Shown here: piece by piece, positions 3,496 through 32,281 of the stretch | Layout of the letters: every line of letters begins with the position of its first letter | Position numbering within the stretch: position 1 is the stretch's first letter | From: Candidatus Nanohaloarchaea archaeon | Lineage (GTDB): Archaea > Nanohalarchaeota > Nanosalinia > Nanosalinales > Nanosalinaceae | DNA: 46,128 nt | Reading direction: 5' to 3' | Assembly: GCA_042217695.1 (NCBI GenBank) | Contig: JBDGSE010000041.1 | Coordinates: forward strand, 1 to 46,128 | Translations under genes and position numbers: made by a program | The notes under the pieces: model-generated | Databases searched by the model: none | What the model saw: the letters and a program-made list of their open reading frames with translations, nothing else | Told to the model about the DNA's origin: nothing

Positions 3496-3497
3496 CT

Positions 3498-4596: not shown

Positions 4597-4599
4597 GGG

Positions 4600-4764: not shown

Positions 4765-4801
4765 TACACCGGTTAATTGTCGCGCCGTGTTAAAATAGCT
4801 T

Positions 4802-4960: not shown

Positions 4961-4978
4961 AGACCAGTTTATGTTCTC

Positions 4979-4989
4979 TTATATAAAAA
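4979..4989 (-). promoter_or_regulatory. Putative TATA box of a leaderless pilin transcript
   Basis: TTTTTATATAA on the minus strand, about 20-29 nt upstream of the ATG at 4960. Confidence 0.55.
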
Positions 4990-5008
4990 CAGTAAAGCCG
5001 GTCTGCGT

Positions 5009-6938: not shown

Positions 6939-7085
6939 TCAGTTTCCAGCGATTTGAAGTGCGTTGTCTAGGGTCGAGGAGATGGTGCTCCCCATAAGTT
7001 TCATCATCAGCAGGGCCGCTATCGCTCCCACTATCACCAGTATCAGGTACCGGTTTGCGGATACGGCTGCTCTATGCGATCGCAT
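6939..7085 (-). CDS. Minimal pilin-like protein, 48 aa (not in ORF track)
   Basis: MRSHRA|AVSANRYLILVIVGAIAALLMMKLMGSTISSTLDNALQIAGN*; GGAGG Shine-Dalgarno 8 nt upstream; overlaps the stop of the platform gene. Confidence 0.65.
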   Translation of the reverse strand: MRSHRAAVSANRYLILVIVGAIAALLMMKLMGSTISSTLDNALQIAGN

Positions 7086-9217: not shown

Positions 9218-11482
9218 TCACACCTGCTGGTCCAGCCATTCTTTCCACCGGGCGTAGACCCTTTCCGTGTCCTGTTCGCCGTACTCCTCCCTTACGCGTT
9301 CTGCAAGCAGGTGGTATTTCTGGTTTGCCTGGACCACGAACTCCGCCTCAAGTAGCTCGGGGTTTTCCGTCTCGTTAGCCTTCTCCACCAGCTCCTGCTT
9401 GATCTGTTTCCGGAGCTGTATGTTGTCCCAGACCGCCTCCCAGTCGTTCTTCCACTCACGGATGTTCTCCGCTATCCTGTTCAGTATCAGTGATTCGCCG
9501 TTGAGCAGTTCGTCTGTCGGGACTAGCTCGTCTTCGTTGCTGTCGTAACGCATCAGGTCTACAAAGGCGTTCTCTTCCTGTGGATCCTCGGTCCACTCCT
9601 TCCTTACCTCGGTTATGCCCGTAACCCGGCGATAGGTCTCCAGTCCGTCCGGGCTCCGTATCTTGTTGACGCTGACGATGATGTCCGTCGCCTTGAACGA
9701 TGTCGGCGGGACATCCAGATCGTTCACCACCCTGTCAAACACGGAGTAGGCGTCCTCGCCGTGGATGGTTCCCCCGACGAAGTTCGCGACCGCACCTACA
9801 CGCATGGCCTCGTAGAGAGCCTGGGCCTCGTCGGAACGTACCTCTCCGATGACCAGTGCAGAGTCTCCCAGTCTCAGCGAGGTCCTGATGGCTTCATCTG
9901 CAGGTATCTCGTTTTCGACGTTGGTGATAACGGACCGGGATTTCATGCGCTCCACGTTGAAACCCAGATCCTTCATCTGAGGTATCGGGAGCTCCAGTGT
10001 GTCCTCAACGGTTACTATCCGGTGGTTCTTCATTATCTCAAGCATGGCCGCGCCCAGCAGAGAGGTTTTCCCTGCTCCCCGGGTACCCGCGAACAGCACG
10101 GAGCGATTGCCGTCAACGATGAAGGACAGAAGCGCGGCTCCAAGCGGGTTTATCATGTTGTTGTCGATGAAGAGAGGCAGTGTCCAGGCCTTGGAGCGGT
10201 GCCTCCTGAAGGCGAACGCAAGTCCCTCCGGCGACAGACTCTCCTGTATCACTGCTACACGGGCGCGTCCACCAGGGACCTCTGCCTCCGTGTCGAGTAC
10301 CGGGTTCGCCTCGTCGAGAGGTCTGCCGGAACGTATCCTGAAACGGGTGGCCCATGACTCGGCCTCGTCCTTTGTAGGTATCAGGTTTGTCTCGCATTCC
10401 CCGTAGTCCTGGTGTGTCACGAATATAGGGGACTGGCCTATCGGCGAGTTGATGTAGACATCTTCGATTTTTGGGTCTGCTATAAGAAGTTCAAGCACCC
10501 CGAGCCCTGAAGTGTACCGGTTCAGTATAGAGGCCAGGTTTTCCAGTTCTTCCATGGACAGGTTGAGCCCCATCTGGGAGGCTATATCTCTCAGCATGTC
10601 GCGTCCGATGTTCTCGAATACTTCGTTCATCCTTTCGGGGCGTGCGAACTCGCCCTCCTCGGGCTGGTGTTCTGCCATGAACCTTCTCGCCGCGTCGAGT
10701 AACGTGTACTTCTCCTCCGGGAGAGAGAACTCGGGAGGGTCGACATGGTAGACGGGCCTGGTCTGGTCCGGTACCTGGTAGACCGAGACCTCTATATCGT
10801 TCCTTATATCGTATCTGTCGATCTCCTCTCCCCGTTCAGGGGGCAGGGACATGTACTTGGTAAGCATGAAGTTTGGACGGACAAGAGGGTGGAAGAATTC
10901 ACGGTAGATCTCTCTGTCGCCGACGTGGTGGCCTGTCAGGTATGGTTCCGCCCTTTGAATCATGTTGCACTCCTCCAGCCGTTCCTTGACAGGGTCTAGA
11001 ACGTCCTGTATGAAGTATTTCAGGCACCGCTGTTCCTGGGGGTAGGCGTTCTCCCGGTCCTGTTTGAGGTGGCGTTTCTTTCTTCTCAGGCGGACGTACG
11101 CGCCGACAGGGTCTCGCCGGAGCTGGTCGAATATCATCTCCTGGACCTCCGGCAGGTGCTGCGAGTAAACGTTATCGCAGTTCTCGGTCTTTATGTTCTG
11201 CGACAGGTAGCCCTGGCTGGATATATCCTGTATGGCGTCCGCTATCTCTCTCAGAAGGCGTACCTGCTCCTCGTCGTACTCGTAGTCCCGGGACTCTGAG
11301 AGAACCACGGAAGTGGCCTCCGGGATTTCCTGCAGGATGTTGATGACACGCGACATCACTTGCGGGTAGTCCTCGATGGAGGCCCCGTAGACCGAGCCCA
11401 GGGTATTGACCTCTACTGTACCTGACTCCTCGTCGTATTCGTACTCGAAAACGTCTTGATCCGTTGCAGCCATACCCAGCAT
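9218..11482 (-). CDS. Type II/IV secretion system ATPase (PilB/ArlI/CpaF family)
   Basis: Walker A GTRGAGKT, Asp box TVEDTLEL, Walker B LVIGEVR, His box GTIHG; long N-terminal extension. Confidence 0.95.
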   Translation of the reverse strand: MLGMAATDQDVFEYEYDEESGTVEVNTLGSVYGASIEDYPQVMSRVINILQEIPEATSVVLSESRDYEYDEEQVRLLREIADAIQDISSQGYLSQNIKTENCDNVYSQHLPEVQEMIFDQLRRDPVGAYVRLRRKKRHLKQDRENAYPQEQRCLKYFIQDVLDPVKERLEECNMIQRAEPYLTGHHVGDREIYREFFHPLVRPNFMLTKYMSLPPERGEEIDRYDIRNDIEVSVYQVPDQTRPVYHVDPPEFSLPEEKYTLLDAARRFMAEHQPEEGEFARPERMNEVFENIGRDMLRDIASQMGLNLSMEELENLASILNRYTSGLGVLELLIADPKIEDVYINSPIGQSPIFVTHQDYGECETNLIPTKDEAESWATRFRIRSGRPLDEANPVLDTEAEVPGGRARVAVIQESLSPEGLAFAFRRHRSKAWTLPLFIDNNMINPLGAALLSFIVDGNRSVLFAGTRGAGKTSLLGAAMLEIMKNHRIVTVEDTLELPIPQMKDLGFNVERMKSRSVITNVENEIPADEAIRTSLRLGDSALVIGEVRSDEAQALYEAMRVGAVANFVGGTIHGEDAYSVFDRVVNDLDVPPTSFKATDIIVSVNKIRSPDGLETYRRVTGITEVRKEWTEDPQEENAFVDLMRYDSNEDELVPTDELLNGESLILNRIAENIREWKNDWEAVWDNIQLRKQIKQELVEKANETENPELLEAEFVVQANQKYHLLAERVREEYGEQDTERVYARWKEWLDQQV

Positions 11483-11514: not shown

Positions 11515-11952
11515 ATGGCTCAACAGGACCTGCTGAACCAGATTGTTAACCGGGTCAACGATTTCAACAGGCGTATCCGTGACCTGGAGGAGAAGGTGCG
11601 TAACCTTAACGCGCGTGTGAACACTCTTGACGATTCTCTGCTCAAGAAGACCAAGTCGCTGAGTGACGACATACAGGATCTGAACGATGACCTGAGCGAA
11701 GTGAGAGACAGGATCGCCAACATGGAGGTGGACATCAAGGAGATAAACCGGGAGAAGCGGAAGTTCGTGACTTCCCAGGAGATAGAGGAGATAGAGAACT
11801 ACATGGACCTTATGAACCCGATACAGTCCTCATTCACTACGGAAAGCGAGGTTAAAAAGCTGGTCGAGGAGCATTCTTCCGGGGGAGACGGCCTGACAAA
11901 GGAGGAAGTCGAGCGTATCGTGGACAGAAAGATAAAAAAGCTGGAAGAATAA
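11515..11952 (+). CDS. Coiled-coil protein divergent from the pilus ATPase
   Basis: Heptad repeats over about 75 aa, then YMDLMNP; acidic composition consistent with a real gene. Confidence 0.85.
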   Translation: MAQQDLLNQIVNRVNDFNRRIRDLEEKVRNLNARVNTLDDSLLKKTKSLSDDIQDLNDDLSEVRDRIANMEVDIKEINREKRKFVTSQEIEEIENYMDLMNPIQSSFTTESEVKKLVEEHSSGGDGLTKEEVERIVDRKIKKLEE

Positions 11953-12011
11953 CTCGTTTATAAGCTAATAAAAAGCTGGAAAACTCTTTAACAGTTAGAA
12001 GGACGAAAAAC

Positions 12012-12929
12012 ATGAAGTTCAAACTTTTTGGGCGGCTTCGGGACAACGATGAAGAGACCGGTTCCTCTGACTCCGCTGGTTTCGGCGGAGGCGGTTTCGG
12101 CGACAACGGAGGAGGTTCCGGAAACCCTGGTTCCTCTGATTCTGGTGGTTTCGGCGGAGGCGGTGGTCTGGAACGCACGGTCCAGAACATGTTCTCCCAG
12201 GGATACTCCGAGGAGGAGATAAAGGAAGAACTGCAGGGACAGTACTCCCAGACAGAGATAGAGAGGGCGATAAACAATACAGTTACCTCCTCTGCGACAG
12301 GGGAGCTCGACGACGATGACGCACCTGAACCTATGACGCCGTACCAGCAACAGAGCGACGAGGCTGTAAGCCCGATGGATGAAGGATACCAGAACGATAA
12401 CTCGGACAACGGTAACGACTTCCAAAACTCCCAGCAGCAGTCCGGAGGGTTTGATTCCGGCCAGATGCAGCTACAGCAACAGCAACAACAGCAACAGCGG
12501 CCACAGCAGTCACAACCCCAGCAGCAGGCTGGAGATACTGTGGACCCTGCTGTGGAAGAGCTTATAGAGACCATAGTTGCCGAGAACTTTCAACGTGTGG
12601 AGGAGGAGTTCGAAAACGTATACCAGGAACTCGACATAATAGAGGAGAAACTTGAGGACCTGGATCGGCGTGTCCACGATCTGGAGGTCCGGGGTGATGA
12701 AGATCAGCAGGAGTTCGTGCAGAAGGTCGACGAGATAGAGGATCACATCGACTCCTACGAGTCGCGGATCGGAGGGCTGGAGAAAGCTTTCCAGCAGGTT
12801 CTTCCGTCCCTGGTCGACAACGTGAGAGACCTCACCAACCTGGTACAGGAGATAAAACAGGAGAGAGGTATAGAGACGGAGACAAATGTTTCTCAGGAGG
12901 AAATGGACTCGCTTGAAGAGGAGTGGTGA
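12012..12929 (+). CDS. Coiled-coil protein with Gly-rich and poly-Gln disordered N-terminal half
   Basis: GSSDSxGFGGGG twice, Q-tract, C-terminal heptads ending IGGLEKAFQQVLPSLVDNV. Confidence 0.85.
   Translation: MKFKLFGRLRDNDEETGSSDSAGFGGGGFGDNGGGSGNPGSSDSGGFGGGGGLERTVQNMFSQGYSEEEIKEELQGQYSQTEIERAINNTVTSSATGELDDDDAPEPMTPYQQQSDEAVSPMDEGYQNDNSDNGNDFQNSQQQSGGFDSGQMQLQQQQQQQQRPQQSQPQQQAGDTVDPAVEELIETIVAENFQRVEEEFENVYQELDIIEEKLEDLDRRVHDLEVRGDEDQQEFVQKVDEIEDHIDSYESRIGGLEKAFQQVLPSLVDNVRDLTNLVQEIKQERGIETETNVSQEEMDSLEEEW
12060..12164 (+). repeat. 36-nt intragenic duplication (12060-12095 and 12129-12164)
   Basis: ggttcctctga(c/t)tc(c/t)g(c/g)tggtttcggcggaggcggt occurs twice. Confidence 0.85.
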
Positions 12930-12932
12930 CTC

Positions 12933-13427
12933 TCAGACTTCCTGTGTTGTCAGGTAGACGATTATCATCACGAAGATCAGTGTAAGGATCGGCATAACCA
13001 CTTCATCGAACAGGTTGCCTCCACCGGTCACCGCGCCGCTGCTGCCGTACCGCACCAGAGCGCTCAGGAACGATATCACTGCGATACCTCCTCCGAATAT
13101 CCATGGAAGCGACCAGGACCCTCCCATATCCTCGAGGTCCTGACCTGCCACTCCCAGCAGTATCAGGAGCGCAAGCATGCCAAAGATACCGAACGCTATG
13201 TCTGCAGCGAAGTGCGACCACATCCCTGGAGGGGCGAACCGGTTCACACCGATGATGGCAAGGAAGGCGAGCGCTATGGCTATAGCTCCGTTTACCTGTG
13301 CCTCGTCGCTGACCACGTTGTATTTGTTCAGCAACCCGTAGGTCACCGCAAGCATCAGCAGCCATGGAAGGAAAAGGTTGAACCCGGCTTCCGCCATGGT
13401 CTGCACCACTGATTGGAAAAATCCCAT
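12933..13427 (-). CDS. Multi-pass membrane protein, 'LP(F/W)..Y' module paralogue 1
   Basis: About 5 hydrophobic helices; LFLPWLLMLAVTYGLL ... NGAIAIALAFL. Confidence 0.85.
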   Translation of the reverse strand: MGFFQSVVQTMAEAGFNLFLPWLLMLAVTYGLLNKYNVVSDEAQVNGAIAIALAFLAIIGVNRFAPPGMWSHFAADIAFGIFGMLALLILLGVAGQDLEDMGGSWSLPWIFGGGIAVISFLSALVRYGSSGAVTGGGNLFDEVVMPILTLIFVMIIVYLTTQEV

Positions 13428-13433
13428 GTATCA

Positions 13434-13964
13434 TCACTCCGTTCCGAACATCCCACCTTCCTGATCTGTGGAGGTCCAGTAGACCAGGGCCCCGACTATG
13501 ACCAGCCAGACCAGTCCGGATTCAAAGAAGGCCTGGATCGCCTGGCCGAACGGTATCTGGTAGGGGAATATCGCCTTTAAGCCCCCGGTGAACGTGAAGA
13601 CAGATAGTACGGCCAGTATCAGTATTATCCCGAGGCCTGTCTTGTGGTCGTTTATCAGTTCGGTTGCCCCGGCCATTCCGAGTATGGTCATTACACCGAG
13701 CAGCCCGATGAATCCAACGGTCAGTCTACCGAAGAACTGGACAAAGAACTTCTGGTAGAACGGTTTCTGCGCTATGAACTGTGCCGCGAAGAACGCCACG
13801 GCCAGCGCGATTATCGCAGGTGCGTTGTTCTCGTCGCCGAATAAGTCGACGTTCCGGAGGGCGAAGAGCGCCACCACGTACGTTACCACGAACGGTAACA
13901 GCAGCGTGAAGAAGTCCATCTGCTGGAGTGTCTGCAGGAACCCTCCGAAAGTCGCGACGGCCAC
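13434..13964 (-). CDS. Multi-pass membrane protein, 'LPF..Y' module paralogue 2
   Basis: About 5 hydrophobic helices; LLLPFVVTYVVALFAL ... PAIIALAVAFF. Confidence 0.85.
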   Translation of the reverse strand: MAVATFGGFLQTLQQMDFFTLLLPFVVTYVVALFALRNVDLFGDENNAPAIIALAVAFFAAQFIAQKPFYQKFFVQFFGRLTVGFIGLLGVMTILGMAGATELINDHKTGLGIILILAVLSVFTFTGGLKAIFPYQIPFGQAIQAFFESGLVWLVIVGALVYWTSTDQEGGMFGTE

Positions 13965-13968
13965 TCAG

Positions 13969-14253
13969 CTATTCACCCTCTTCATGCTCGTGTTCGTCCG
14001 GGACCGAGTCCTGCGCCATGTACTGTCGCAGGTTCCTGTTGAGCAGCCATAGTTCGCGGCCTATGATCATCAGGCCCAGCATGACTATCCACTCGAATAT
14101 GAGCTTGCCCCAGCTAGTCCAGCTGAGTCCGCTGCTGGTCAGGAAAGCGTTGAGGGTTACAAATATGGCGCCGAACGACAGCACGCCGATAAGGAATTCG
14201 TCCAGTATGTTTTCTACCCTGTAAAGGAATTCGTGGAATTTCTGTTCTGGCAT
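13969..14253 (-). CDS. Small 2-TM membrane protein with acidic tail
   Basis: ATG at 14253 follows a GGTGA Shine-Dalgarno; two hydrophobic helices; ends EHEHEEGE. Confidence 0.8.
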   Translation of the reverse strand: MPEQKFHEFLYRVENILDEFLIGVLSFGAIFVTLNAFLTSSGLSWTSWGKLIFEWIVMLGLMIIGRELWLLNRNLRQYMAQDSVPDEHEHEEGE

Positions 14254-14262
14254 TTTAATCAC

Positions 14263-14412
14263 CTATGCCCATCCTCCTCCTGCCATTCCGCCGCCTTTCT
14301 GGCGGTCCTGGAACCATTTTATGATGTATCCGGCGGCCAGTCCGATCACCAGCACCTCAGGTGAAGTTGAGATCTTGGCCATCAAACCCGGCAGTGTTGT
14401 CGCGATAGGCAT
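14263..14412 (-). CDS. Micro membrane protein, 49 aa (not in ORF track)
   Basis: MPIATTLPGLMAKISTSPEVLVIGLAAGYIIKWFQDRQKGGGMAGGGWA*; fills the gap ahead of the operon, with a TTTAAA box upstream. Confidence 0.7.
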   Translation of the reverse strand: MPIATTLPGLMAKISTSPEVLVIGLAAGYIIKWFQDRQKGGGMAGGGWA

Positions 14413-14457
14413 TTTATTTTCCCTCTAAGACCTTTTTTCTACTCGGGGTTTAAATAA

Positions 14458-15555
14458 TTACACGGGCGCAGAGGTTTCTGTATCGTTTCCAAGGGTTTCT
14501 GGGGTTTCCGGTGTTTCAGGTTCCAGGTATCTCCCGGTCTCAAGTCGTTCTTCCAGGTGGCCCGAGTAGGTCCTTCTGTGGTACCCTGAAGGTTCCAGTT
14601 CCTTCTCCACCATGTCGGCTATCTCCGAGTCTATGTCCTGGTCCGAGGCACTCCTTATACCGTCGAGTCCCACGGTAGAGTTCACCTCCAAAACGGTTGT
14701 CTCACCGTCCGGCGTCACCGTGTAGTCTATTCCAAGTAGTCCGCCGCCGAGTGCATCCGCGGAGTCCCATAGGGTTTCGAACTCCTCCAGGTATAATTCG
14801 TCCGGGTCCCGGTAGGCTCCACCGTTGGCTATGTTCTTCGGCTCGTATTCCTCGCCCTCCCGGGTCTTCGTCTCTATTATCCTGTTCTCATGGCTTCCGG
14901 CGAAGACCACTGCGCGCCTCTCTTCTACACCGGTGTTCCAGTGGTCTATGCATTCCTCGTAGATCTTGTCGGTGTCGAACTCGAGGTCTTCCTCAGGGCG
15001 CAGTACTTCCACCTCTCTCCCGCGGGACTGGTCGTCAGGCTTCTTTATTACGGGTCCTTCCTCCAGCGCTGTCTCCACCTCTTCTTCAGTTGTGTATGTT
15101 TCCGGGGTCTGGACGCCGTGGCGTTTCAGGGCCTTCTTTGTCCTGTTTTTGTCGTTGCTGATGTCGGAGCCTTCCGGTGTGTTTATGAAGTCAAGTCCGT
15201 GCTCTGCGAGCTCTTCAAGTTCACCTGCGTGGTCCTCGAAACCTCTCTTGTTCCGGTGCAGAACAGTCTTGTCCTCGAGCAGGCTGGCGCTGACCCCATC
15301 GATGTATGCCTCGTTGTCCTGGTACTCGATGTCGTCCGAGTTGAACTGGTGTACGCTGTACCCCCGGTCCTCGAGTTCGTCGATAACAGGAGAGAGGGAG
15401 AGCTGTCTGTCGGCGGCGAGCAAAAGGTCTGAATCCATTATTTCAGGGGTTTCCCGGTCCTCGAGTCCGCCCCCTGCAACGAATTCCTCGTCTATCACGA
15501 TGTCGTTGCCGCCGTCCACGAACCAGCGGTAAAGCCATCCAATAAATCCCGTCAT
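14458..15555 (-). CDS. RimK/LysX-family ATP-grasp ligase
   Basis: NDK, IKKP..QSRGREV, NIANGG, GID and LEVN motifs all present. Confidence 0.85.
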   Translation of the reverse strand: MTGFIGWLYRWFVDGGNDIVIDEEFVAGGGLEDRETPEIMDSDLLLAADRQLSLSPVIDELEDRGYSVHQFNSDDIEYQDNEAYIDGVSASLLEDKTVLHRNKRGFEDHAGELEELAEHGLDFINTPEGSDISNDKNRTKKALKRHGVQTPETYTTEEEVETALEEGPVIKKPDDQSRGREVEVLRPEEDLEFDTDKIYEECIDHWNTGVEERRAVVFAGSHENRIIETKTREGEEYEPKNIANGGAYRDPDELYLEEFETLWDSADALGGGLLGIDYTVTPDGETTVLEVNSTVGLDGIRSASDQDIDSEIADMVEKELEPSGYHRRTYSGHLEERLETGRYLEPETPETPETLGNDTETSAPV

Positions 15556-15596
15556 ACAAGTTGTTGTAAATAAGTAACAACTTAAGCCTTTGGGTT

Positions 15597-17066
15597 CTAG
15601 AGCGCCTGCTGCAGTTGACTGGCCTCTGACTCTATCTGCTGTATCATCTCTTCTATCTGGCCTATCTCGGTTTCAAGTTCCTGGGCGGTCTCATCGTTGA
15701 AGCCGGACTGTTCTATGAACTCCCGGAAACGCTCCAGTATGTTGCCCTCCTGCTGGAACTCCTGGGCGAGTTCCTCCATCTCCTGGATGTCTTCCTGGTC
15801 GTATTTCCGCTCTTTTTCCAGCTCCTCGATCTCCTCCTGGAGTTCCTGTCTTATCCTCTGCTTCTCCTCTATGGCGTTCTTCGCCTCTTCTGCCACTTTC
15901 TTGGTCCTTTCCTCGTCCTGTTCGATTTCCTGCCAGTCTTCCCGGTCGTTGTACTGTTTCGCTATCTTCTCGGCCGTCATCTCCTCGTCTTCAATTTCTT
16001 CTACCAGTGTCTGTAGCTGGTTGGCCTCTGTATCCAGTTCCTCGAGCGAGTCCCGGAGACCCCTGAAAGCGCGCTGGTAGTACTGGATGTCCTGGTGGAC
16101 CTCCCGCTCGAACTTGAGCGATTCGTGGAACTCTCCCAGGTTCTCCCGTATCTCTTTGAGCTCCGGCACGAGGTCCTCGGCCAGCTCTTCTTCTAGGCGC
16201 GGATCGCCGGCCTGGTAACGGTTCTTGAGCTGGGAAAGCTCGTTTTTCAGGTCCCTGAGGTCCTGTGTGGTCTTCTGTTCGACCTCTCCAAGTTCCTCGT
16301 GTTCCTTCTTCTCCTCTCTAAGGGTCCTGTCCTCCCGGTTCTTCAGCTCGGACATGAGTTTCTCGGAGTTGCTCTCGATACTCTCTATCTTCTCCGTGAT
16401 GTCCTCCAGCTCCTGTTCCTCGGCCTCTATCTCCTGCGTTATCTGGCTGGGGTCCGGGTTGTTCTCTTCTTCCGCCCCGGTCTGGTCTTCCTTCTGTTTT
16501 TCATCCTCTATCTCGTCTTCCAGTTCGTCCAGTCTTTCGGACAGGCCCTTAATGGCATTGGTGACCTCTTCGTTGCTGCCGCCCGAGCTGGAATCCGAGG
16601 AGCCAGAGATTATCCCCGGGGACCAGGAGCCTTCCTTCCCGGTTCCGAAAAGGTTCCAGATGAACAGGACGCCAAGGATTATCGTCACGAGAAAAGCGAA
16701 GGGAACCGCTAAACCACCCAGGTAGCGTGTTACGATCGCGGCCATGCTTGCGCCCACGACCTTGCCTGCCCAGTTAACCATCTCGCTCCCCTCTCCACGG
16801 AGGGGGGAGTCACTTCCCATCATGTTGCCCTCGGTCATCTGGAACACGTAATGGGAGCCAAACCTGAGAAGACCGTAGAGCCCGATGAATGGCATGAGAA
16901 CCGAGGTGAAGAACTGCCCCCAGGTTTCTACAGGGGCGATAACCAGGGTGTCAAAGAAGTTGAGTATCATGGCTGTACCTGTACCCCCGGCTAGCTGGGC
17001 GGATACAGGTGCTACGAACAGCAAGATGAAGAAAGCAAGTATAGATCCTGTCCGGGGCCTCTTCAT
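15597..17066 (-). CDS. Signal peptide + 3-TM module + long acidic coiled coil (489 aa)
   Basis: VSA|Q signal peptide, VLMPFIGLYGLL module, Ser/Gly linker, about 320 aa of heptads. Confidence 0.85.
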   Translation of the reverse strand: MKRPRTGSILAFFILLFVAPVSAQLAGGTGTAMILNFFDTLVIAPVETWGQFFTSVLMPFIGLYGLLRFGSHYVFQMTEGNMMGSDSPLRGEGSEMVNWAGKVVGASMAAIVTRYLGGLAVPFAFLVTIILGVLFIWNLFGTGKEGSWSPGIISGSSDSSSGGSNEEVTNAIKGLSERLDELEDEIEDEKQKEDQTGAEEENNPDPSQITQEIEAEEQELEDITEKIESIESNSEKLMSELKNREDRTLREEKKEHEELGEVEQKTTQDLRDLKNELSQLKNRYQAGDPRLEEELAEDLVPELKEIRENLGEFHESLKFEREVHQDIQYYQRAFRGLRDSLEELDTEANQLQTLVEEIEDEEMTAEKIAKQYNDREDWQEIEQDEERTKKVAEEAKNAIEEKQRIRQELQEEIEELEKERKYDQEDIQEMEELAQEFQQEGNILERFREFIEQSGFNDETAQELETEIGQIEEMIQQIESEASQLQQAL

Positions 17067-17112
17067 AAAACCTAATTATGTGTTCCTCTGTTTATTAAAC
17101 CGAACGCCTGCG

Positions 17113-18771
17113 TCAGTATTTCTGGTGGTTTAGAAGAGTCTTCATCAGCTTCTCAGTGACCTCTTCCAGTTCGTCCACAAGTTTGCCGATCTCTTTCCCT
17201 GTCTCGCGCTGACTGGTCTCGTACTCAACCATCTCCCTCGTACGCCTGGAAAGCGTCTGGAAGCTGTCTATTATCCTGTTCAGGGCATCGTGTATCTCCT
17301 CTTCCTCCGAGATCGTTCCTCTGCTGAGGACAAGATCCCGGGTCACAAGCCACTTCCCGAGGTGTCTGTGGGCCCGTTCATTGATCTCCCTGAGCTCTTC
17401 GAGTCCGAAACGCTCCATCTCCGCCCTGTCGATGTCTTCCAGTCGACCCTCCAGCTCTATAAGAGTGTTCTCCTGGTTCTCTATCTCTCCGAACTTTTCC
17501 TGGAGTTTTTCCAGCTTTTTCTGGTCCATACTGGTCTTCTGCTGTAATTCTGTATCGTCGAGAGCCCTGGAAAGCTTTTTCAGAGTGTTCTCTTCCTCGA
17601 AGGCCTTCTCTACCCGGTAGGTGAATTTTTTCATGGCCTCCAGCGCGTTTTTCTGTTCTCTGACAAGTCGGGAAAGTTCCTGGCGGTGTTGCTTGAGGTC
17701 GCTGGAGGAGTCTCTCTCTATCTCATTCATCCTCTTAATCAGGGTATACACTTCTTCGACCTCTTCCTCCAGGTCTCCGGACCTGAGGGCCTGCGGGAGA
17801 CCGTCGAACCTGCCGGTTCTCTGGTCCAGCTGTTCCAGCCGCCTGTTCTTCTCTGTGTGGGACTGCCAGTTTCTCCACCGGTTCTCCCGGGAACTGAACG
17901 ACCGGTCCTCCAGGAACTCCAGGTAGAGCTGTGCGTAGTCCGCGGCGGCTTCCATTTCAGACGGGAAGAACTTTTGCAGGACCTGTCTGCTCTCTTTCTC
18001 AAGCTCCCGGAAACGCGCCAGAAGCTCGTACTCCTTCTTCTTGTAGCTGACGAACTCGTTTCCCTTCTCCGCGATGTCTTTTATCTGGCTGGCTTCAACC
18101 TCCTGTATCTCCTCGATAAATTCTGCCTCGCTCTCCAGTTTGTCTGCAACCGTGGAGAGCTCTTCGGCAGAGTAGTCCGCCGAGCCCGGGTCGTGCCGGG
18201 ATTCACGGGTATCTATGTCCTCCTCCAGCTCCTCTACCTGCTGGTTCATCTGGTTCACTGTCTCTGTCATCTCTTCCACGCCGCCGTCGGGCACTGGGTT
18301 TCCTCCGGTGTTCGTGTTTGTCCCTCCCACGTTAACGGCGCCGTGCCGGAAAACTCCCAGCGTCTGCCAGAGGAGGAATAGGCCTCCGAGGAGTCCGATT
18401 ATCAGGGCGAATGGTACTGTGAGTCCGCCGTAGGCGAATATGAAGAGTGTGGCCATCGCGGCGGCCATCAGCGAGGACGCCTTTTTACCTGTGTCCGAAA
18501 GTTCACCGGTGCTTCCGAGACCTGTGTTCTGCCCGAAATTATGCTCTGTCAACAGTAACGCTTTCCGTATCAGGAACCAGAACAGGCCGTACATCCCGAT
18601 GAAGGGCAGAACTATGAATATCACAAAGTCCGCGCTGTTCTCTATTTCCGCTGCGGCCACCGGGTCCAGCATTCCAAAGACGTTACCGCTACCCCCTGTT
18701 ATCTGGGCTGTTGCGGCACCGGAGAAAAGCAGGATTAAAACCGTCAGCGCAAAACCTCTCCTCTTCGACAT
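17113..18771 (-). CDS. Signal peptide + 3-TM module + long coiled coil (552 aa)
   Basis: ATA|Q signal peptide, IVLPFIGMYGLF module, helical C-terminal region. Confidence 0.85.
   Translation of the reverse strand: MSKRRGFALTVLILLFSGAATAQITGGSGNVFGMLDPVAAAEIENSADFVIFIVLPFIGMYGLFWFLIRKALLLTEHNFGQNTGLGSTGELSDTGKKASSLMAAAMATLFIFAYGGLTVPFALIIGLLGGLFLLWQTLGVFRHGAVNVGGTNTNTGGNPVPDGGVEEMTETVNQMNQQVEELEEDIDTRESRHDPGSADYSAEELSTVADKLESEAEFIEEIQEVEASQIKDIAEKGNEFVSYKKKEYELLARFRELEKESRQVLQKFFPSEMEAAADYAQLYLEFLEDRSFSSRENRWRNWQSHTEKNRRLEQLDQRTGRFDGLPQALRSGDLEEEVEEVYTLIKRMNEIERDSSSDLKQHRQELSRLVREQKNALEAMKKFTYRVEKAFEEENTLKKLSRALDDTELQQKTSMDQKKLEKLQEKFGEIENQENTLIELEGRLEDIDRAEMERFGLEELREINERAHRHLGKWLVTRDLVLSRGTISEEEEIHDALNRIIDSFQTLSRRTREMVEYETSQRETGKEIGKLVDELEEVTEKLMKTLLNHQKY
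18364..18633. repeat. 270-bp perfect direct repeat, copy 1
   Basis: Identical by eye to 21622-21891; encodes the 90-aa TM module. Confidence 0.95.
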
Positions 18772-18806
18772 AAAACGGTTTTTTCCCCGCTGACTTTAAT
18801 ATCCTG

Positions 18807-19217
18807 CTAGAACGCCATCAGGTAGAGCATGTAGAGGAACAGCAGTCCGAAAGCCGCCACCAAGCCAAGCCCGAGGTAGTTTATCCAGGTTATTATCATG
18901 TCCCAGAAAGGCGTGGGCACCAGCATCAGCGTAATCGCCAGCGCCATCAGTGTGGCTTCCGTGTTCACGTCCGGTCTATCGGCGAACCAGGGAGAGTCGT
19001 CATCCATAAGGATGAGCTGCAGGGTCTTGGTCAACAGGAAGTAGAGGAGCACGTAGACGAAGGCGAACGGCGCCACGAACTGTGTAAGTATCTCCCCCTG
19101 TGAATCGTACTGTATCTGGAAGGTGTTGCCGTAGTCGCCGTAGGCCCCGGCGGCAAGAGATATCAGCGCGAGAAATCCGATCAGGAGTACGAGGGCTTTA
19201 TTCGAAGTCAAAGTCAT
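18807..19217 (-). CDS. Signal peptide + stand-alone 3-TM module
   Basis: FVAPFAFVYVLLY ... ATLMALAITLML; start at ATG 19217 or TTG 19211 rather than 19286. Confidence 0.8.
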   Translation of the reverse strand: MTLTSNKALVLLIGFLALISLAAGAYGDYGNTFQIQYDSQGEILTQFVAPFAFVYVLLYFLLTKTLQLILMDDDSPWFADRPDVNTEATLMALAITLMLVPTPFWDMIITWINYLGLGLVAAFGLLFLYMLYLMAF

Positions 19218-19491
19218 CACCGCCGGAGTCAGAGTCGAAGTCCATGTCTCCGTCTCCGCCCATTCCTCCGGCGCCTTCCCCACCACCTTCTCGTACTTTC
19301 TCCACGTAGGCGGGCAGCATCTCGTCTACCAGGAAGCCTGCGATGAGGCCTGTGGCGGCCAGTAGAACTATCTTCGAGGTGAACTGGTTGAGGCCCACCA
19401 TCCCGCTGAACCCGGCCGCACCGTTCTGTGCAGCGAAGAAACCTAGTATGGCTGAGACCGGGAACGCAACGTATTTCCAGGGGTCCTGCAT
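19198..19491 (-). CDS. Small 2-TM protein with Gly/Asp-rich tail
   Basis: Two hydrophobic helices; ends GGDGDMDFDSDSGGDDFDFE. Confidence 0.8.
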   Translation of the reverse strand: MQDPWKYVAFPVSAILGFFAAQNGAAGFSGMVGLNQFTSKIVLLAATGLIAGFLVDEMLPAYVEKVREGGGEGAGGMGGDGDMDFDSDSGGDDFDFE

Positions 19492-19559
19492 ATAGAGGTA
19501 TAGCCTCTATCGACTTTTATGAATTAGGGGTTTTAGAAGGAGAAGAAGGCGGAGGGTTT

Positions 19560-20045
19560 TTACTCTCGGCCCCGGGCCCACTCCCTGTACTTGGTCTCTC
19601 CGTCTCTGATCTCGTTTACCAGTTCGATGATCTCCCTGAAATCTTTTACTGTCTCCTCCTCGTCCTGGACGTCCTGCTGAGTCTTCTTGTCCGCATCTCT
19701 TAACTCGCTCAGCGCCTGCTCGATCTCCTGCAGGATGTTCTCTACCTTGTCGAATTCCTGCTGGAGCTGCCGGGCGGACCCGATCTGGTTGATGTTGCTG
19801 ATGATCTTCTCGACCTGCTGGTGCTGTTCGGCGGCAGGTGCGTTCGTATCCACTTTCCGGAAGTATATCAGGGCGCGGAAGACTCCCTCCTCCTGTTTAA
19901 GTTTATCGAGCGTGTCCGCCAGTTTCTGTTCGGCGTCACGTTGCTCCTGCACGATCTCCTCCTCGATTTCTTCCTCTTTTTCCAGGTGCTGGATGGTCTC
20001 CTTTATGTCGTTAACGAATCCGGATAGGTCTACGTCTTCTACCAT
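19560..20045 (-). CDS. Soluble helical-hairpin protein, paralogue of the C-terminal domain of 20092-22044
   Basis: Shares EGVFRALIYFRKVD, HQQVEKI, IGSA, RDAD and VNEI.xGETK with the upstream gene; no TM or signal peptide. Confidence 0.9.
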   Translation of the reverse strand: MVEDVDLSGFVNDIKETIQHLEKEEEIEEEIVQEQRDAEQKLADTLDKLKQEEGVFRALIYFRKVDTNAPAAEQHQQVEKIISNINQIGSARQLQQEFDKVENILQEIEQALSELRDADKKTQQDVQDEEETVKDFREIIELVNEIRDGETKYREWARGRE

Positions 20046-20091
20046 GGTACAATTTTACCGTTTGCCTATTTTATTACCTTTGGAACATTAA

Positions 20092-22044
20092 TTACAGGTT
20101 CTCGTACTTTTCCACGTATTCACGCAGCTTTGTCTCTCCGTTCTGTATCTCGTTTACTATCCGGGAAACCTCTTCTAGCTGTGTATCCGAGGATTTCTCC
20201 ATTTCCATGTCTTTTGACATCTTCTGGTCGGCGTCCCTGACCTCCTGCAGGGCATGTTCTATCTCCTTTATAAGTCTCTCGGCCTCTTCGACCTCTCGCT
20301 GGAGGTGGTCGGCGCTACCTATCTCGTTCAGGTTCTTCAGTATCTTCTCGACCTGCTGGTGTTTCTCGGCCTGTGGTGCGTCCATGTCGACCTTTCTGAA
20401 GTATATCAGGGCGCGGAAGACTCCTTCATGGTTGTTCATCAGCTCCTTCAGGGCGTCCGCGAGTTCCTGCTCCGCATCCTGTTTCTTCCTGAAAACTTCC
20501 TCCTCCAGTTCCTCCTCTTTCCGGAGCCCCTGGATAATCTGCTCTATGTCTTTTATCAGCTGGTCGTCGAACGTCCCATCGTCCTCGATCTCTTCCGGTT
20601 CTCCACCGCCCTTGAGTATATCCTCCAGCATCTCGCCTATCTCTACAAGTATCTGCCGGTTGACCTGCTGGGCGTTTCTGGCGTCCATAAGCAGGGCGTG
20701 AAGCCGGTTCAGGAAAGGTTCCATCTGCTGTGATCCAAGGTTGAGTATATCCTGGTAGAGCATCTGGACGACCTCGGCTTCCACCTGGACATTTTGATCA
20801 CCTGGCACCTGGACTGTTGCGGTATCTCCCTGTATCTGTACATCTCCGTCAAGTATCGCAACCACCTGTTTGAGCAGCGACTGGTTGATCTGGTTGAAAC
20901 GCTGTTCGTTCCGGATCTCGTTTACCAGGTTGTTCAGCACCTGGCTCTGCCTGACCTCTCTGACTATCTGTTTGTTCTGGACGTTCTGGACGTACCTGTC
21001 GCCCTCCACGTACTCCTCTACATTGTTTATGGCCTGGCGCGGTTCCTGCTCGTACTCTCTCAGGAATTCGAACACCTCCTCCAGCATCTCCTGGTTCAGC
21101 TGCTGGTTCTGTTTCAGCAGTTCAGAGATGGCCTCGACCATCGTCTCGTTCACCATGTTCTGATCCAGGTCGTTCATCACGTCACCGAACTCGTTGACCA
21201 CCTCCACGGGTAACTCGGCCGCGGGGGCATCCCCCTCTGGAGGTATACGGATAGTGTTGTTCTGCCGGTATATCTCCCCCATCATGAAGGCCATGAACTG
21301 CATCATCGCGGGAGACATCTGTTGCTGCTGTTGCATCATCCCCACCATGGGAGGTATCGCGTTCCGTCCCCTTGCAGGCCCCGGACCCGGTCCAGGGGCG
21401 GGAGGCCAGTTTTCAGGCAGGTCTATGTCGAGGTCACCGATCATCTGCTGCATCTGGTTGATGTTCTGGTTCATCTGCTCCATCTGGTTTTCCAGGTCGC
21501 TGGTGTCGACATCGACGTTGACATCCTGCGTTCCGTTCCCTCCGTTTCCTCCGGGTGGTCCTCCCCCGTTGCCACCGCCTCCTCCGAGGCCTCCGATACC
21601 TGCTCTTGCGGCCCCGAGCAGCTGCCAGAGGAGGAATAGGCCTCCGAGGAGTCCGATTATCAGGGCGAATGGTACTGTGAGTCCGCCGTAGGCGAATATG
21701 AAGAGTGTGGCCATCGCGGCGGCCATCAGCGAGGACGCCTTTTTACCTGTGTCCGAAAGTTCACCGGTGCTTCCGAGACCTGTGTTCTGCCCGAAATTAT
21801 GCTCTGTCAACAGTAACGCTTTCCGTATCAGGAACCAGAACAGGCCGTACATCCCGATGAAGGGCAGAACTATGAATATCACAAAGTCCGCCGTCGAGTT
21901 TATCTCCATCGCGGAGATGTTGTTCGCCCACTCAACCACGGTGTTCTCGAACATGTTGCCTCCGCCGTCGAACTGTGCGGCTACAGGAGCGGTGAAGAAC
22001 AGGGCTATTACAAAGAGGTATGCGACAGCCCTGAAGCTTCTCAT
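20092..22044 (-). CDS. Signal peptide + 3-TM module + low-complexity linker + long helical region (650 aa)
   Basis: VAA|Q signal peptide; TM module identical to that of 17113-18771; G/N/P and M/Q-rich linkers. Confidence 0.85.
   Translation of the reverse strand: MRSFRAVAYLFVIALFFTAPVAAQFDGGGNMFENTVVEWANNISAMEINSTADFVIFIVLPFIGMYGLFWFLIRKALLLTEHNFGQNTGLGSTGELSDTGKKASSLMAAAMATLFIFAYGGLTVPFALIIGLLGGLFLLWQLLGAARAGIGGLGGGGGNGGGPPGGNGGNGTQDVNVDVDTSDLENQMEQMNQNINQMQQMIGDLDIDLPENWPPAPGPGPGPARGRNAIPPMVGMMQQQQQMSPAMMQFMAFMMGEIYRQNNTIRIPPEGDAPAAELPVEVVNEFGDVMNDLDQNMVNETMVEAISELLKQNQQLNQEMLEEVFEFLREYEQEPRQAINNVEEYVEGDRYVQNVQNKQIVREVRQSQVLNNLVNEIRNEQRFNQINQSLLKQVVAILDGDVQIQGDTATVQVPGDQNVQVEAEVVQMLYQDILNLGSQQMEPFLNRLHALLMDARNAQQVNRQILVEIGEMLEDILKGGGEPEEIEDDGTFDDQLIKDIEQIIQGLRKEEELEEEVFRKKQDAEQELADALKELMNNHEGVFRALIYFRKVDMDAPQAEKHQQVEKILKNLNEIGSADHLQREVEEAERLIKEIEHALQEVRDADQKMSKDMEMEKSSDTQLEEVSRIVNEIQNGETKLREYVEKYENL
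21622..21891. repeat. 270-bp perfect direct repeat, copy 2
   Basis: Identical by eye to 18364-18633 (offset 3258 bp). Confidence 0.95.
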
Positions 22045-22082: not shown

Positions 22083-22313
22083 CTACTCGAACTTTCCGAG
22101 GCGTTCAAGGGTCTCAAGGATTCCCCAGGCGTAGACCACCGATTCCCAGGCCTGTATATAGTCCTCCTCCTCGAGGAAGTGCAGTGTATCGTCTCTGTAG
22201 GCGATAACGTTCTCCATCTGCTCTACATCCTGGTCTCGCTCCTCGAGTCTTTCGTCCAGCTTCTTCAGCCATTTTTCTGTCTCGGACTCCAGTTTTTCCT
22301 GCGTGGCATCCAT
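22083..22313 (-). CDS. DUF357 family protein
   Basis: AYxxDxxHFLEEEDYIQAWESVVYAWGILE matches the archaeal DUF357 pattern. Confidence 0.85.
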   Translation of the reverse strand: MDATQEKLESETEKWLKKLDERLEERDQDVEQMENVIAYRDDTLHFLEEEDYIQAWESVVYAWGILETLERLGKFE

Positions 22314-22410: not shown

Positions 22411-23001
22411 ATGGTTTTGAGTGATGTGTACTCCGGCCTCAAGGACGAGCTCCTGGTGGTTGGAGCAGTGAAGGCTGCAGAGAAGCTCGAAGAGAAGTAC
22501 AACGAGCTTCGACACGTTGAGGGAGACGAAATTTCGCCGGAGGAAGACCCGGGTTTTGAAGTTGTTGAGTCGGGAGAGGATTATACTGTTTTCGAACCAA
22601 AACCTGAGACTGGAGGAAAAGGAGGTGAAACAATGAAAGATTACGGAGACGCTGACGCAGACCTGTCCTCTTTCGAAGAGGCTGTCGCCTACGCTGAACT
22701 GGCGATGGACGACCACCACGACACACAGGAATACCTGAGGAAGGCAGAGGAAGAGGTGGCCGACCAGGCAGAGTACGCTGCCGCGGTCGCACAGGCAGTT
22801 GCCGGCGACGCTGAAGACGCAGTGGACGTCCTCACCGATTACCTGATGGAAGACCGCAAGGTCAAGGATGACAGAGCGGTCGAACTGATGGAGAGGAAGG
22901 AAACTGTTGAACAGATGCTTGAGCCTGTCGGGACTTCTGACGAGACGTCCGACAGGATCGACAGGATGAGGGACAGGGTCGACAACGAGTACTTCGGCTA
23001 A
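22411..23001 (+). CDS. Acidic helical hypothetical protein; possible second start at 22633
   Basis: AMDDHHDTQEYL motif shared with the next gene; perfect GGAGGTGA before the in-frame ATG at 22633. Confidence 0.8.
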   Translation: MVLSDVYSGLKDELLVVGAVKAAEKLEEKYNELRHVEGDEISPEEDPGFEVVESGEDYTVFEPKPETGGKGGETMKDYGDADADLSSFEEAVAYAELAMDDHHDTQEYLRKAEEEVADQAEYAAAVAQAVAGDAEDAVDVLTDYLMEDRKVKDDRAVELMERKETVEQMLEPVGTSDETSDRIDRMRDRVDNEYFG

Positions 23002-23122: not shown

Positions 23123-23659
23123 ATGACGGGGCTGGATGACGCTGTCGAACGGGCGGACTACGCGATGGATGACCACTATCACGCCCAGGAATACCTGATG
23201 GATGCCATCGAGGACCTGGAATCGGTCCTGGACGATCTCGAGTCCTCCGGAACTGCCGCCAGCGAGTTTGAAAGGTTTGCCGGTGTCGTTGCAGACTACC
23301 TGGAGGAGGACACGGAGAGGACGGCGAGACAGGCCGCGAAGATAGAGGACCTTACTGAAAGACTTGAAGGCTCCTATACCGGTGGTTACAGCCCTGACTG
23401 GGGTTACGGCGATGATACGTGGACCGGTCTCTCATGGACTCCCTGGATGACCCAGCAGCAACAGATGTTTGTCATGATGCCTGGCTGGGGTTACGGCAAC
23501 TGGAACGACTGGGAGCTGGAGGGACAGTCCTGGGCAGAGGAAGGGACGCAGGAAGAACAGGGCGACTGGGGCCAGTGGACCGACTGGAACCCGGTATGGG
23601 CTCCCGGCTTTCAGTCACAGGGTTTCGGCGGGCAGTTCCAGTACGCCGGATGGTACTAG
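23123..23659 (+). CDS. Paralogous helical protein with Trp/Gly/Gln-rich C-terminal tail
   Basis: AMDDHYHAQEYL motif; TTTTAAA box about 25-30 nt upstream. Confidence 0.8.
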   Translation: MTGLDDAVERADYAMDDHYHAQEYLMDAIEDLESVLDDLESSGTAASEFERFAGVVADYLEEDTERTARQAAKIEDLTERLEGSYTGGYSPDWGYGDDTWTGLSWTPWMTQQQQMFVMMPGWGYGNWNDWELEGQSWAEEGTQEEQGDWGQWTDWNPVWAPGFQSQGFGGQFQYAGWY

Positions 23660-24351
23660 CCAAGGAACTTTTTCTCGGTATGTGAAAGCTCTCCTGTTAT
23701 TATAATCGAGTGGGGGGTCTCGCCGAACTCTTTATCCGCGAGGCCTCCCAGTTCTCCGCGCGTCACAGACTGTGACTCCTGGTTTGCACGTTCGAGGACA
23801 ACAGCGTCCCGGTGTTCAAGCGTGGAGTCCATCTCCACCAGTTTCTCCGCCGCCTTTTCCGCACGGTAATCGATGTCCAGCAGCACTAACGTGTGGAGGC
23901 CTATAGAATCGTTCTTCTGGATGTACTCGGTTATCGACTCGGGTTTCGAATCCCTGGGAAGGGTCACAGTTCTCCCGAACCTGTAGATGCTGAGACCGGT
24001 CTCTGCTATCGACGTGAATATCGATGGTGCGTGTATGACCTCTGTTTCTACCCCGGATTCCTCGGCCCGGTGCTTGATGTCGAAGTGGGTGGTCGCGGTC
24101 AACGGGTCTCCGGAGACGAGAAAGGCGGTTTCCCTCTCCATGGCGGACTCCATTATCCGGTCCTCACGTTCCACCTTGTCGCGCTCCAGCTTCTTTATCT
24201 CGGTGCCGGAACGTTCCTCGAGCCTTTCCAGGTCGATGGTCTGCGTGTTCGTGTAGAACTCTGCGTAGGCTATATCTGCGGATTCCAGGGCTTTCATCCC
24301 TCTGAGTGTTATCTCGTCCTCATCCAGACCGAGCCCTATGATGTGGAGCAT
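23656..24351 (-). CDS. dph5: Diphthine synthase
   Basis: MLHIIGLGL, YAEFYT, LVSGDPLTATTH, GLSIYRFGRTVT, GLHTLVLLDI. Confidence 0.96.
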   Translation of the reverse strand: MLHIIGLGLDEDEITLRGMKALESADIAYAEFYTNTQTIDLERLEERSGTEIKKLERDKVEREDRIMESAMERETAFLVSGDPLTATTHFDIKHRAEESGVETEVIHAPSIFTSIAETGLSIYRFGRTVTLPRDSKPESITEYIQKNDSIGLHTLVLLDIDYRAEKAAEKLVEMDSTLEHRDAVVLERANQESQSVTRGELGGLADKEFGETPHSIIITGELSHTEKKFLG

Positions 24352-32205: not shown

Positions 32206-32281
32206 TACAGGGTCGTTAAGGACTGTCACTATCGACTAATATATAAATTTTGGACAAGGTGTTATTAATAGGTGACACTAC

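Follow-up and report, generated by a model that had tools for sequence, protein, structure and literature searches.

A Block of Thirteen Genes Beside a Secretion ATPase

We analyzed a 46,128-nucleotide stretch of DNA (the window) from Candidatus Nanohaloarchaea archaeon, a DPANN archaeon (contig JBDGSE010000041.1; genome of 757 kb in 44 contigs, 82.7% complete), and specifically focused on a block of 13 open reading frames, g1–g13, that fills positions 11515–22044 almost without gaps: g1 and g2 lie on the plus strand, and g3–g13 lie on the minus strand and converge on g2. The block adjoins gene E (9218–11482, minus strand), whose 754-residue product is a secretion ATPase of the T2SSE/VirB11 family (PF00437, 57.4 bits against a cut-off of 24.9); next to E lies gene F (7072–9213, minus strand), which encodes a 713-residue polytopic platform protein of the T2SSF/TadC/PilC type (PF00482, 31 bits against 25.2). 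The g1–g2 pair begins 33 nt from E. An earlier note, made by a model from the letters of this DNA, had described 13 genes adjoining a pilus ATPase and had recognized nothing among them except an ATP-grasp ligase. Both statements hold: all 13 genes are present, g7 is the only one that exceeds a curated Pfam cut-off, and none exceeds a cut-off in NCBIfam. Moreover, relatives of every one of the 13 genes occur in the same order in other genera or genomes; consequently, they are not chance reading frames, and the 13 genes are confirmed as real.

The block opens with two coiled-coil proteins, g1 (11515–11952, 145 residues, cytoplasmic, divergent from E) and g2 (12012–12929, 305 residues, with a Gly/Phe-rich disordered N-terminus). 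All further genes are read from the minus strand. A third soluble coiled-coil protein, g12 (19560–20045, 161 residues), duplicates the C-terminal domain of g13; g1, g2 and g12 contain neither a hydrophobic segment nor a signal peptide. The core membrane family is represented by g3 (12933–13427, 164 residues, about five helices by hydropathy) and its paralogue g4 (13434–13964, 176 residues), and three small membrane proteins are encoded by g5 (13969–14262, 97 residues, two helices), g6 (14263–14412, a single-helix micro-protein of 49 residues) and g11 (19198–19491, 97 residues, whose Gly-rich tail has an acidic/Phe motif at its end). These three micro membrane proteins and three soluble coiled-coil proteins are as the earlier note had described them. 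The rods, in turn, combine a signal peptide and three transmembrane (TM) segments with a long coiled coil, which is acidic in g8 (15597–17066, 489 residues) and both Q/N-rich and acidic in g13 (20092–22044, 650 residues); g9 (17113–18771, 552 residues) is a paralogue of both. The N-terminal module of the rods stands alone in g10 (18807–19286, about 134–159 residues, the likely start being a Met near 19211), and g7 (14458–15555, 365 residues) is a RimK/LysX-like ATP-grasp ligase and an optional member. In most relatives, namely in 20 of 23 evaluable loci, the block ends with a DUF357 gene (22083–22313, minus strand; Pfam, 41.3 bits against 29.4), which is probably a neighbor rather than part of the block.

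Conservation of Gene Order

We gathered 41 nanohaloarchaeal loci via g1 and scanned them with profiles from six genomes, counting for each gene only those loci that offer enough flanking sequence. E is present in 34 of 35 loci and F, always beside E, in 33 of 33; g2 recurs in 38 of 39 and g3 together with g4 in 37 of 37. The remaining genes follow with 33/36 for g5, 20/23 each for g10 and g11, 12/23 for the rod module and 4/23 for g12, where it has to be considered that the rods diverge fast and are probably undercounted by the profile. In other families of the phylum, g1, g2 and two to five g3/g4 paralogues recur beside E–F together with a larger polytopic protein. Beyond the halophiles, an alignment of non-halophile g3/g4 members yielded 60 metagenome loci, 18 of which hold g1: in all 18, E adjoins g1 in divergent orientation, and g1, g2 and two to eight g3/g4 paralogues are arranged head to tail on one strand. 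The contigs in question have a guanine-plus-cytosine content of 35–58% and encode proteins with about as many acidic (Asp plus Glu) as basic (Lys plus Arg) residues; they probably belong to other DPANN archaea. Synteny with the ATPase, which the earlier note had suggested as a check, thus ties the cluster to a pilus-type motor as had been claimed, both in nanohaloarchaea and in every g1-bearing non-halophile locus.

The block consists of two layers. Four of the 13 genes, g1, g2, g3 and g4, form the widely shared core. For the rods, g5, g6, g10, g11, g12 and the ATP-grasp gene, detection was confined to the family of the window, short rod-like relatives elsewhere being the one exception. A Nanosalinaceae-type layer of g5, g6 and g8–g13, sometimes with the ATP-grasp ligase, is added to the core there.

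A conserved gene order may also be a mere legacy of descent, in which case the membrane and coiled-coil genes would serve some other envelope or membrane-organizing task than that of the motor beside them. Housekeeping genes are indeed syntenic over similarly long distances: this applies to the DUF357 gene and to a tetrapyrrole-methylase gene, which flanks the paralogue array both in the window (23656–24351) and in a distant non-halophile locus (L099:11163–11927). Since the methylase is surely unrelated, part of the gene order must be inherited or ancestral. Furthermore, g3–g13 of the window are transcribed convergently to g1–g2 from the opposite strand and not together with them, and in three loci (L078, L080 and L081) g1–g4 are found away from E–F. 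In these very loci, however, g1–g4 lie directly behind pilin-like arrays on the same strand; in L078 and L081, the arrays upstream of g1 comprise, as judged by eye, small proteins with a [KR]G motif and a hydrophobic N-terminus, which is the look of archaeal prepilins (class III signal). Additionally, the genes of all 18 g1-bearing non-halophile loci run head to tail from the ATPase promoter region, and outside the block synteny collapses between genera of one family. On balance, we regard mere neighborhood by descent as unlikely.

The Motor and the Pilin-Like Genes

The ATPase E carries an extra N-terminal region of about 220–290 residues that is not covered by matches of the FlaI, CpaF or GspE type. 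In a profile search, the closest solved chains are 2oap, CpaF and FlaI, all of which align from query position 295 onward, and the best NCBIfam match is FlaI (NF058587) with 148.7 bits, which is under the cut-off of 550. Compared with its orthologues in ten other loci, non-halophile contigs included, E is 51–84% identical over the full length; for two aligned non-halophile orthologues, the identity of 51–53% extends over the whole length including the N-terminal region. Some E orthologues reach 1250–1940 residues because they contain one or two inteins with LAGLIDADG homing endonucleases, as seen at L083:12211–16200 and L035:4127–9958 (Intein_splicing, 87 and 201.9 bits); long E frames also occur in loci L025, L030, L033, L040, L046 and L049, and the E of the window contains no intein. 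Inteins tend to occupy conserved, important genes. Elsewhere in the genome, two further T2SSE ATPases (contigs C26:4076–4855 and C25:36642–37271; open frames of 534 and 567 residues) both score higher on the Pfam model than E does and probably belong to the other pilus-like locus and to an archaellum-type or third system.

Downstream of F, six pilin-like genes follow on the minus strand: u6 (5009–6697), u5 (3909–4469), u4 (3498–3908), u3 (2959–3495), u2 (2388–2921) and u1 (1177–2364). All six products have an N-terminal hydrophobic segment and a non-acidic composition, and by inspection the [KR]G motif precedes this segment in u4, u5 and u6; none of them matches a Pfam family, and they are putative pilins by eye only. 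A prepilin peptidase (Peptidase_A24) is matched at E ≤ 0.01 in 56 of 70 genomes of the phylum, in 39 of them over the cut-off and always away from the locus.

The Coiled-Coil Proteins g1 and g2

Among six genera, the mean column identity of g1 amounts to 72%. A search with g1 yielded 205 homologues at E ≤ 1e-3; the organism names among the 120 listed are nanohaloarchaeal or Haloredivivus throughout, and their labels read hypothetical, YoxC, FlaC or chromosome segregation ATPase. The protein is also present in the non-halophile loci described above. Its match to Pfam DUF5798, which we take to be a haloarchaeal family, is sub-threshold (E 1.7e-4, 22.2 bits against a cut-off of 27).

The layout of g2 comprises a Gly/Phe-rich disordered N-terminus, a small three-helix domain, a Q/P-rich linker, a helix of about 107 residues and a tail of acidic residues and Trp. 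In the AlphaFold2 model, helices span residues 51–96 and 179–285 with a mean predicted local distance difference test (pLDDT) of about 78–93 in blocks of ten residues, and the pLDDT is under 50 across all of 97–176 and most of 1–49. The acidic, Trp-containing C-terminus is a trait of the window's family, and elsewhere g2 ends about 25 residues earlier (19 orthologues aligned). Profile comparison with the PDB gave weak hits to sigma-1 (6gao, E 0.0047) and Nup155 (E 0.41), and FlaC_arch matches g2 with E 0.023 and 15.6 bits, under the cut-off of 27.8. A complex prediction for E and g1 scored 0.00 in two runs with controls not folded, which carries no weight either way.

The Membrane Family of g3 and g4

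The paralogues g3 and g4 match each other in hhalign with a probability of 98.1%, and they represent a large family: among 1.84 billion proteins, a profile of 37 g3 and g4 sequences retrieves 2983 cluster representatives (E ≤ 1e-3), of which 1373 reach ≤ 1e-10. The best 150 matches are all 141–226 residues long, and several of them are of non-acidic composition. The nearest ESM Atlas clusters are archaeal hypothetical proteins, the few named ones being assigned to Methanobacteriota, Nanobdellota and Aenigmatarchaeota, which may be taken as a lead only. Within the phylum, the g4 profile matches 59 of 70 genomes and 27 of the 28 high-quality ones. In an alignment of 187 sequences, conservation is highest at a helix-1 Pro (94%), at a Leu (91%) and at Gly residues, together with basic and acidic positions of the loops; within the helices, no charge is conserved. 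The fold search that the earlier note had suggested returned nothing: Foldseek with g3 against the PDB gave no match at E ≤ 0.001. A wide VIA-align search with g3 led to generic helical hairpins only (best Z 7.2 over 68 residues), and the best hit of the sequence-profile comparison with the PDB had an E of 0.09.

Two candidate identities were rejected. A prepilin peptidase is not supported by hhalign (0.35% between 37 g3/g4 sequences and six nanohaloarchaeal A24 proteins) or by any Pfam hit, and an ion-driven stator disagrees with the missing conserved in-helix charge, the Foldseek rows for MotA/ExbB being meaningless at E 4–7.

The tandem arrangement of the paralogues raises another possibility, namely that they are cargo or non-canonical subunits, which the machine would extract from the membrane and transfer into a filament or into the host membrane. 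Fast-diverging paralogues in tandem next to a secretion ATPase typically signal pilins, and the cognate pilins of a related nanoarchaeal ATPase were not found by Makarova et al. 2016 (PMC4858521). The g3/g4 proteins themselves, however, lack the [KR]G class III signal, possess about five helices, coexist with separate pilin-like genes in the same loci and show no relation to the prepilin peptidase family in hhalign either. We therefore give the cargo idea very little credence.

The Rods and Their Relation to the Core Family

The products of g8, g9 and g13 share the N-terminal module of signal peptide and TM segments (blastp, 8e-20 to 1e-51; 8e-20 for g8 versus g9 and 4e-19 for g8 versus g13), which is followed by about 320–480 acidic helical residues. 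This bears out the earlier claim of three module copies with long helical extensions. At the other end, g12 corresponds to the last ~150 residues of g13 with 54% identity over 149 residues (blastp, E 1.7e-42), and g10, profiled from seven aligned orthologues, matches the rod module with a probability of 96.3% (hhalign).

The further claim that the cluster holds six paralogues of one TM module stands in part. Direct hhalign comparisons give probabilities of 74% for the rod module versus g4, 62% for g10 versus g4 and 1.3% for the rod module versus g3. A connection is provided by an intermediate family, which is located between g2 and the paralogue array of non-halophile loci and whose proteins of about 220 residues combine a signal peptide and three helices with a short coiled coil: the hhalign probability is 94.2% to the rod module and 96.7% to g3/g4. 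The latter match spans 44 columns only; these cover helix 1, where the Pro-Phe and Tyr-Gly-Ile-Leu pattern lies, and the beginning of helix 2. These comparisons support, only transitively, a putative membrane superfamily that unites the rods, g10 and g3/g4.

Within the rod family, a 300-nt stretch of g9 (18356–18655) is 95% identical to a stretch of g13 (21614–21913); both lie in the TM module, and outside these stretches the two genes have diverged much further, which suggests a recent gene conversion or duplication within the cluster. Copies of the rod family are confined to the window's locus within the genome, and a g9 query finds relatives in 7 of 24 genomes of the same family and in 0 of 16 from other families.

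Predicted Topology and Location of the Coiled Coils

The rods start with a basic n-region, a hydrophobic stretch and a nearly invariant Ala followed by an invariant Gln, which by its pattern would be a classic signal-peptidase site. Hydropathy places a short outside segment after this site and then three membrane passes, and because of these three passes the coiled coils that follow should be cytoplasmic. The amino acid composition points in the same direction: the fraction of Asp plus Glu is 0.20–0.33 in the rod tails (0.33 in the C-terminal part of g8) and 0.19–0.30 in evident cytoplasmic proteins of the window, as compared with mostly 0.08–0.12 in proteins that bear a signal peptide or are pilin-like (those at 1177–6697, 32282–34018 and 35280–38072), one protein with a PKD domain reaching 0.18. 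Acidity may be usable as a marker of protein location in this organism. From topology and acidity combined, the coiled coils of the rods are predicted to lie in the cytoplasm.

This prediction speaks against the host-contact conduit of helical rods that the earlier note had envisaged, as do the missing signal peptides of g1, g2 and g12 and the lack of a conserved charge in the helices of g3/g4. A related scheme dispenses with the rods: the five-helix paralogues would form a channel, to which the pilus motor delivers host DNA, lipids or metabolites, similar to the way in which a competence pilus serves ComEC. Two to eight paralogues per locus could well build a hetero-oligomeric pore, a pilus-type motor strictly accompanies the block, every named relative and every Atlas taxon is DPANN or archaeal (for g1, among the 120 names listed), and DPANN archaea must import much from their hosts (Hamm et al. 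2024, PMC11291902). Nevertheless, neither a charged nor a polar residue is conserved within the g3/g4 helices, the extracellular loops are very short, the rods as well as g1 and g2 are predicted inside the cell, and no solved channel is resembled, the PDB profile and fold searches having yielded an E of 0.09 at best and generic hairpins with Z ≤ 7.2. An uptake conduit hence appears improbable to us. The broader proposal of the earlier note, a hetero-oligomeric ring, conduit or scaffold of the TM family and its rods that works with the pilus, survives in its other parts: a family with several paralogues per locus fits a mixed assembly, and synteny connects it to the pilus motor; a host-facing conduit made of the rods is not supported.

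End Motifs of the Small Proteins and the ATP-Grasp Ligase

Several proteins of the block terminate in characteristic motifs. The C-terminus of g5 is Gly-Glu in most orthologues (about 27 of the 34 listed). Directly upstream of g5, g6 was found by jackhmmer in 33 of 41 related loci besides the window; its sequence is basic, then Gly-rich, and usually ends with an aromatic or other hydrophobic residue. The Gly-rich tail of g11 ends with an Asp/Phe motif. Together with the acidic, Trp-containing end of g2, these termini look like docking or modification sites.

A possible modifying enzyme is encoded two genes upstream of g5. The ATP-grasp protein g7 matches ATP-grasp_3 (PF02655, 34.4 bits against a cut-off of 23.2) and RimK (PF08443, 27.5 against 21) and thus shares the ATP-grasp and RimK domains with the RimK/LysX ligases. 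It differs from them in its sub-cut-off equivalog scores (57.4 bits against 143.4 for TIGR00768, and below every other NCBIfam equivalog cut-off as well) and in its optional presence. RimK/LysX-type ATP-grasp ligases add residues to the C-terminal glutamate of a protein. By analogy, and as a side hypothesis, the ligase may modify the C-terminal glutamate of a tail where it is present. Among 23 evaluable loci, 8 contain it within the cluster. In five near-complete relatives, a g7 query found no match in three and weak matches elsewhere in the genome in two, which weakens the idea that the Gly-Glu end of g5 necessarily has the ATP-grasp protein as its partner.

A Proposed Collar and Inner Scaffold of a Type IV Filament Machine

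Every DPANN archaeon in cultivation requires direct contact with its host cell, and the proteins from which this contact or bridge is made have not been identified (Hamm et al. 2024, PMC11291902, introduction). We consider it reasonably probable that the 13 genes encode accessory parts of one type IV filament (pilus-like) machine of DPANN archaea, with E as the motor and F as the platform. The analysis establishes that the genes exist, their paralogy, their order and their predicted topology; physical assembly, contact with the motor and any modification are inferred, and function is deduced from gene order only. Given the topology and acidity of the rods, the best reading would be a membrane collar with an inner scaffold rather than a host-facing conduit.

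The proposed architecture is as follows: Wherever the motor is found, the core parts would be the cytoplasmic coiled-coil proteins g1 and g2 as well as several paralogous five-helix membrane proteins. The latter would surround the platform F as a mixed collar within the cell membrane, and beneath this collar g1 and g2 would extend as elongated coiled coils by which the ATPase hexamer is held or regulated. The window's family would have duplicated the membrane module and joined it to long acidic coiled coils, giving g8, g9 and g13, with g10 as a bare module and g12 as a bare tail, and small membrane proteins with flexible Gly-rich tails (g5, g6 and g11) would have been added. The rods and the tailed micro-proteins might then enlarge the scaffold or cage on the cytoplasmic side. 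This lineage-specific expansion probably forms an inner scaffold and not a channel to the host.

Several observations weigh against this proposal. Apart from the convergent transcription of g3–g13 and the ancestral share of the gene order discussed above, gene order is the sole tie between g1–g13 and the motor. As the rods, g5, g6, g10 and g11 were found in one family only, they are not essential to the machine in general. No match to a prepilin peptidase (Peptidase_A24) was obtained in this 82.7%-complete genome. The kinship of g3/g4 with the rod module depends on the 44 columns mentioned, and the direct comparison of the rods with g3 fails. The AlphaFold2 model of g3 (pLDDT 74.5; predicted template modeling score, pTM, 0.42) has no informative fold match. 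Finally, the Gly-Glu end of g5 is kept also in relatives in which no in-cluster ligase was found, which makes the ATP-grasp idea a weak one.

A more far-reaching interpretation sees the block as the inner face of the long-sought DPANN cell–cell bridge. Here, a mixed five-helix ring around the pilus platform would be lined on its cytoplasmic side by the coiled-coil rods and by flexible Gly/Phe-rich tails, and these tails (the N-terminus of g2, the tails of g6 and g11 and the linkers of the rods) would act as a nucleoporin-like selective barrier through which host material drawn in by the pilus motor enters the symbiont. If this were true, the rods would owe their fast evolution and their gene conversion to adaptation to different hosts; we deem this interpretation highly unlikely.

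The significance of the locus lies in its retention next to a single motor ATPase, both in nanohaloarchaea and in non-halophiles that are only distantly related and probably other DPANN archaea. It provides a concrete parts list, consisting of two coiled-coil proteins, one putative membrane-protein superfamily and lineage-specific membrane-anchored rods, and this list names specific targets in the cultivated Ca. Nanohaloarchaeum antarcticus and Ca. Nanohalobium constans. Moreover, the predicted cytoplasmic location of the rods would correct the natural assumption that the coiled coils reach toward the host.

Comparison with Known Systems

The pairing of a pilus-type ATPase with coiled-coil proteins has been published before: across cluster-2 DPANN archaea, Hamm et al. 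2024 (PMC11291902) distinguish two type IV pilus-like loci that contain coiled-coil proteins (CCPs; CCP + CpaF + TadC); they report the detection of CCPs in proteomes as well as weak structural matches to sigma-1 (6gao) and Nup155, and suggest a role of the CCPs in host attachment. The earlier note's remark that pilus-linked coiled-coil loci had been noted in nanohaloarchaea is thus correct. The window shares with these loci the ATPase, the platform and adjacent coiled-coil genes, one of which, g2, contains the ~107-residue helix and gives the same weak profile hits to 6gao and Nup155 (PMC11291902); these shared hits are the only, indirect sign of a possible orthology to the CCP genes of Ca. 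Nanohaloarchaeum antarcticus. Since the GroEL, GatE and Mpg neighbors of Locus 1 of Hamm et al. (PMC11291902) are missing from the window, it resembles their Locus 2. Unlike the text of that article, the window features the five-helix family, the membrane-anchored rods, the micro-proteins and the ATP-grasp gene, which its supplement on ten-gene flanks may list as hypothetical (PMC11291902). In contrast to the attachment role proposed there (PMC11291902), g1 and g2 of the window have no signal peptides and look cytoplasmic. The membrane component family was not found described in the literature searched, which included term look-ups in PMC11291902, PMC13705601, PMC4858521, PMC9563170 and PMC11803251 and had subscription journals outside its scope. 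In a census from 2026 (PMC13705601), DPANN archaea rarely show ordered loci under models based on arCOGs; term look-ups in this source find "coiled-coil" absent and "transmembrane" once, in a methods passage on signal-peptide detection.

A second system of interest is subclade 4F of Makarova, Koonin and Albers 2016 (PMC4858521), whose ATPase has an added N-terminal domain and belongs to an ATPase clade that also occurs in nanoarchaea without identified pilins. The intracellular coiled-coil protein arCOG07564 is linked to 4F and was proposed as a regulatory subunit (PMC4858521). By this description, an N-terminally extended ATPase with an intracellular coiled-coil partner would be common to 4F and the window, and the sole lead toward membership in 4F is the sub-threshold DUF5798 match of g1; a difference is that no polytopic paralogue family is mentioned in the passages on 4F (PMC4858521).

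In terms of mode of action rather than membership, the block can also be likened to the archaellum, in which a FlaI-like ATPase and a FlaJ-like platform are ringed by membrane-anchored or soluble coiled-coil proteins. In related machines, ArlX or ArlC/D/E of the archaellum and the bacterial GspL/M and PilM/N/O hold or regulate the motor ATPase. One g1 homologue is labeled "archaellum component FlaC" at its source. The scores of the window's proteins set them apart from the archaellum, as both the FlaI equivalog match of E and the FlaC_arch match of g2 remain under their cut-offs (148.7 bits < 550 and 15.6 bits < 27.8); moreover, the Pfam and NCBIfam scans revealed no archaellin, ArlH or ArlF/G family among the window genes scanned.

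Further Genes of the Window

Beyond the block, two pairs of very acidic proteins are encoded. The products of 25482–26153 and 27640–28707 are 42.5% identical over 87 residues (E 2e-19), and those of 22411–23001 and 23123–23659 are 32.6% identical over 86 residues (E 4e-5). No Pfam family is matched over the cut-off by either pair, TPR_20 being just under it for 22411–23001. A few kb from the pilus block, at 28717–34018, two large surface-type proteins of 1162 and 578 residues contain PKD, Big_7, CarboxypepD_reg, CARDB and HYDIN-like Ig domains and are candidate adhesins.

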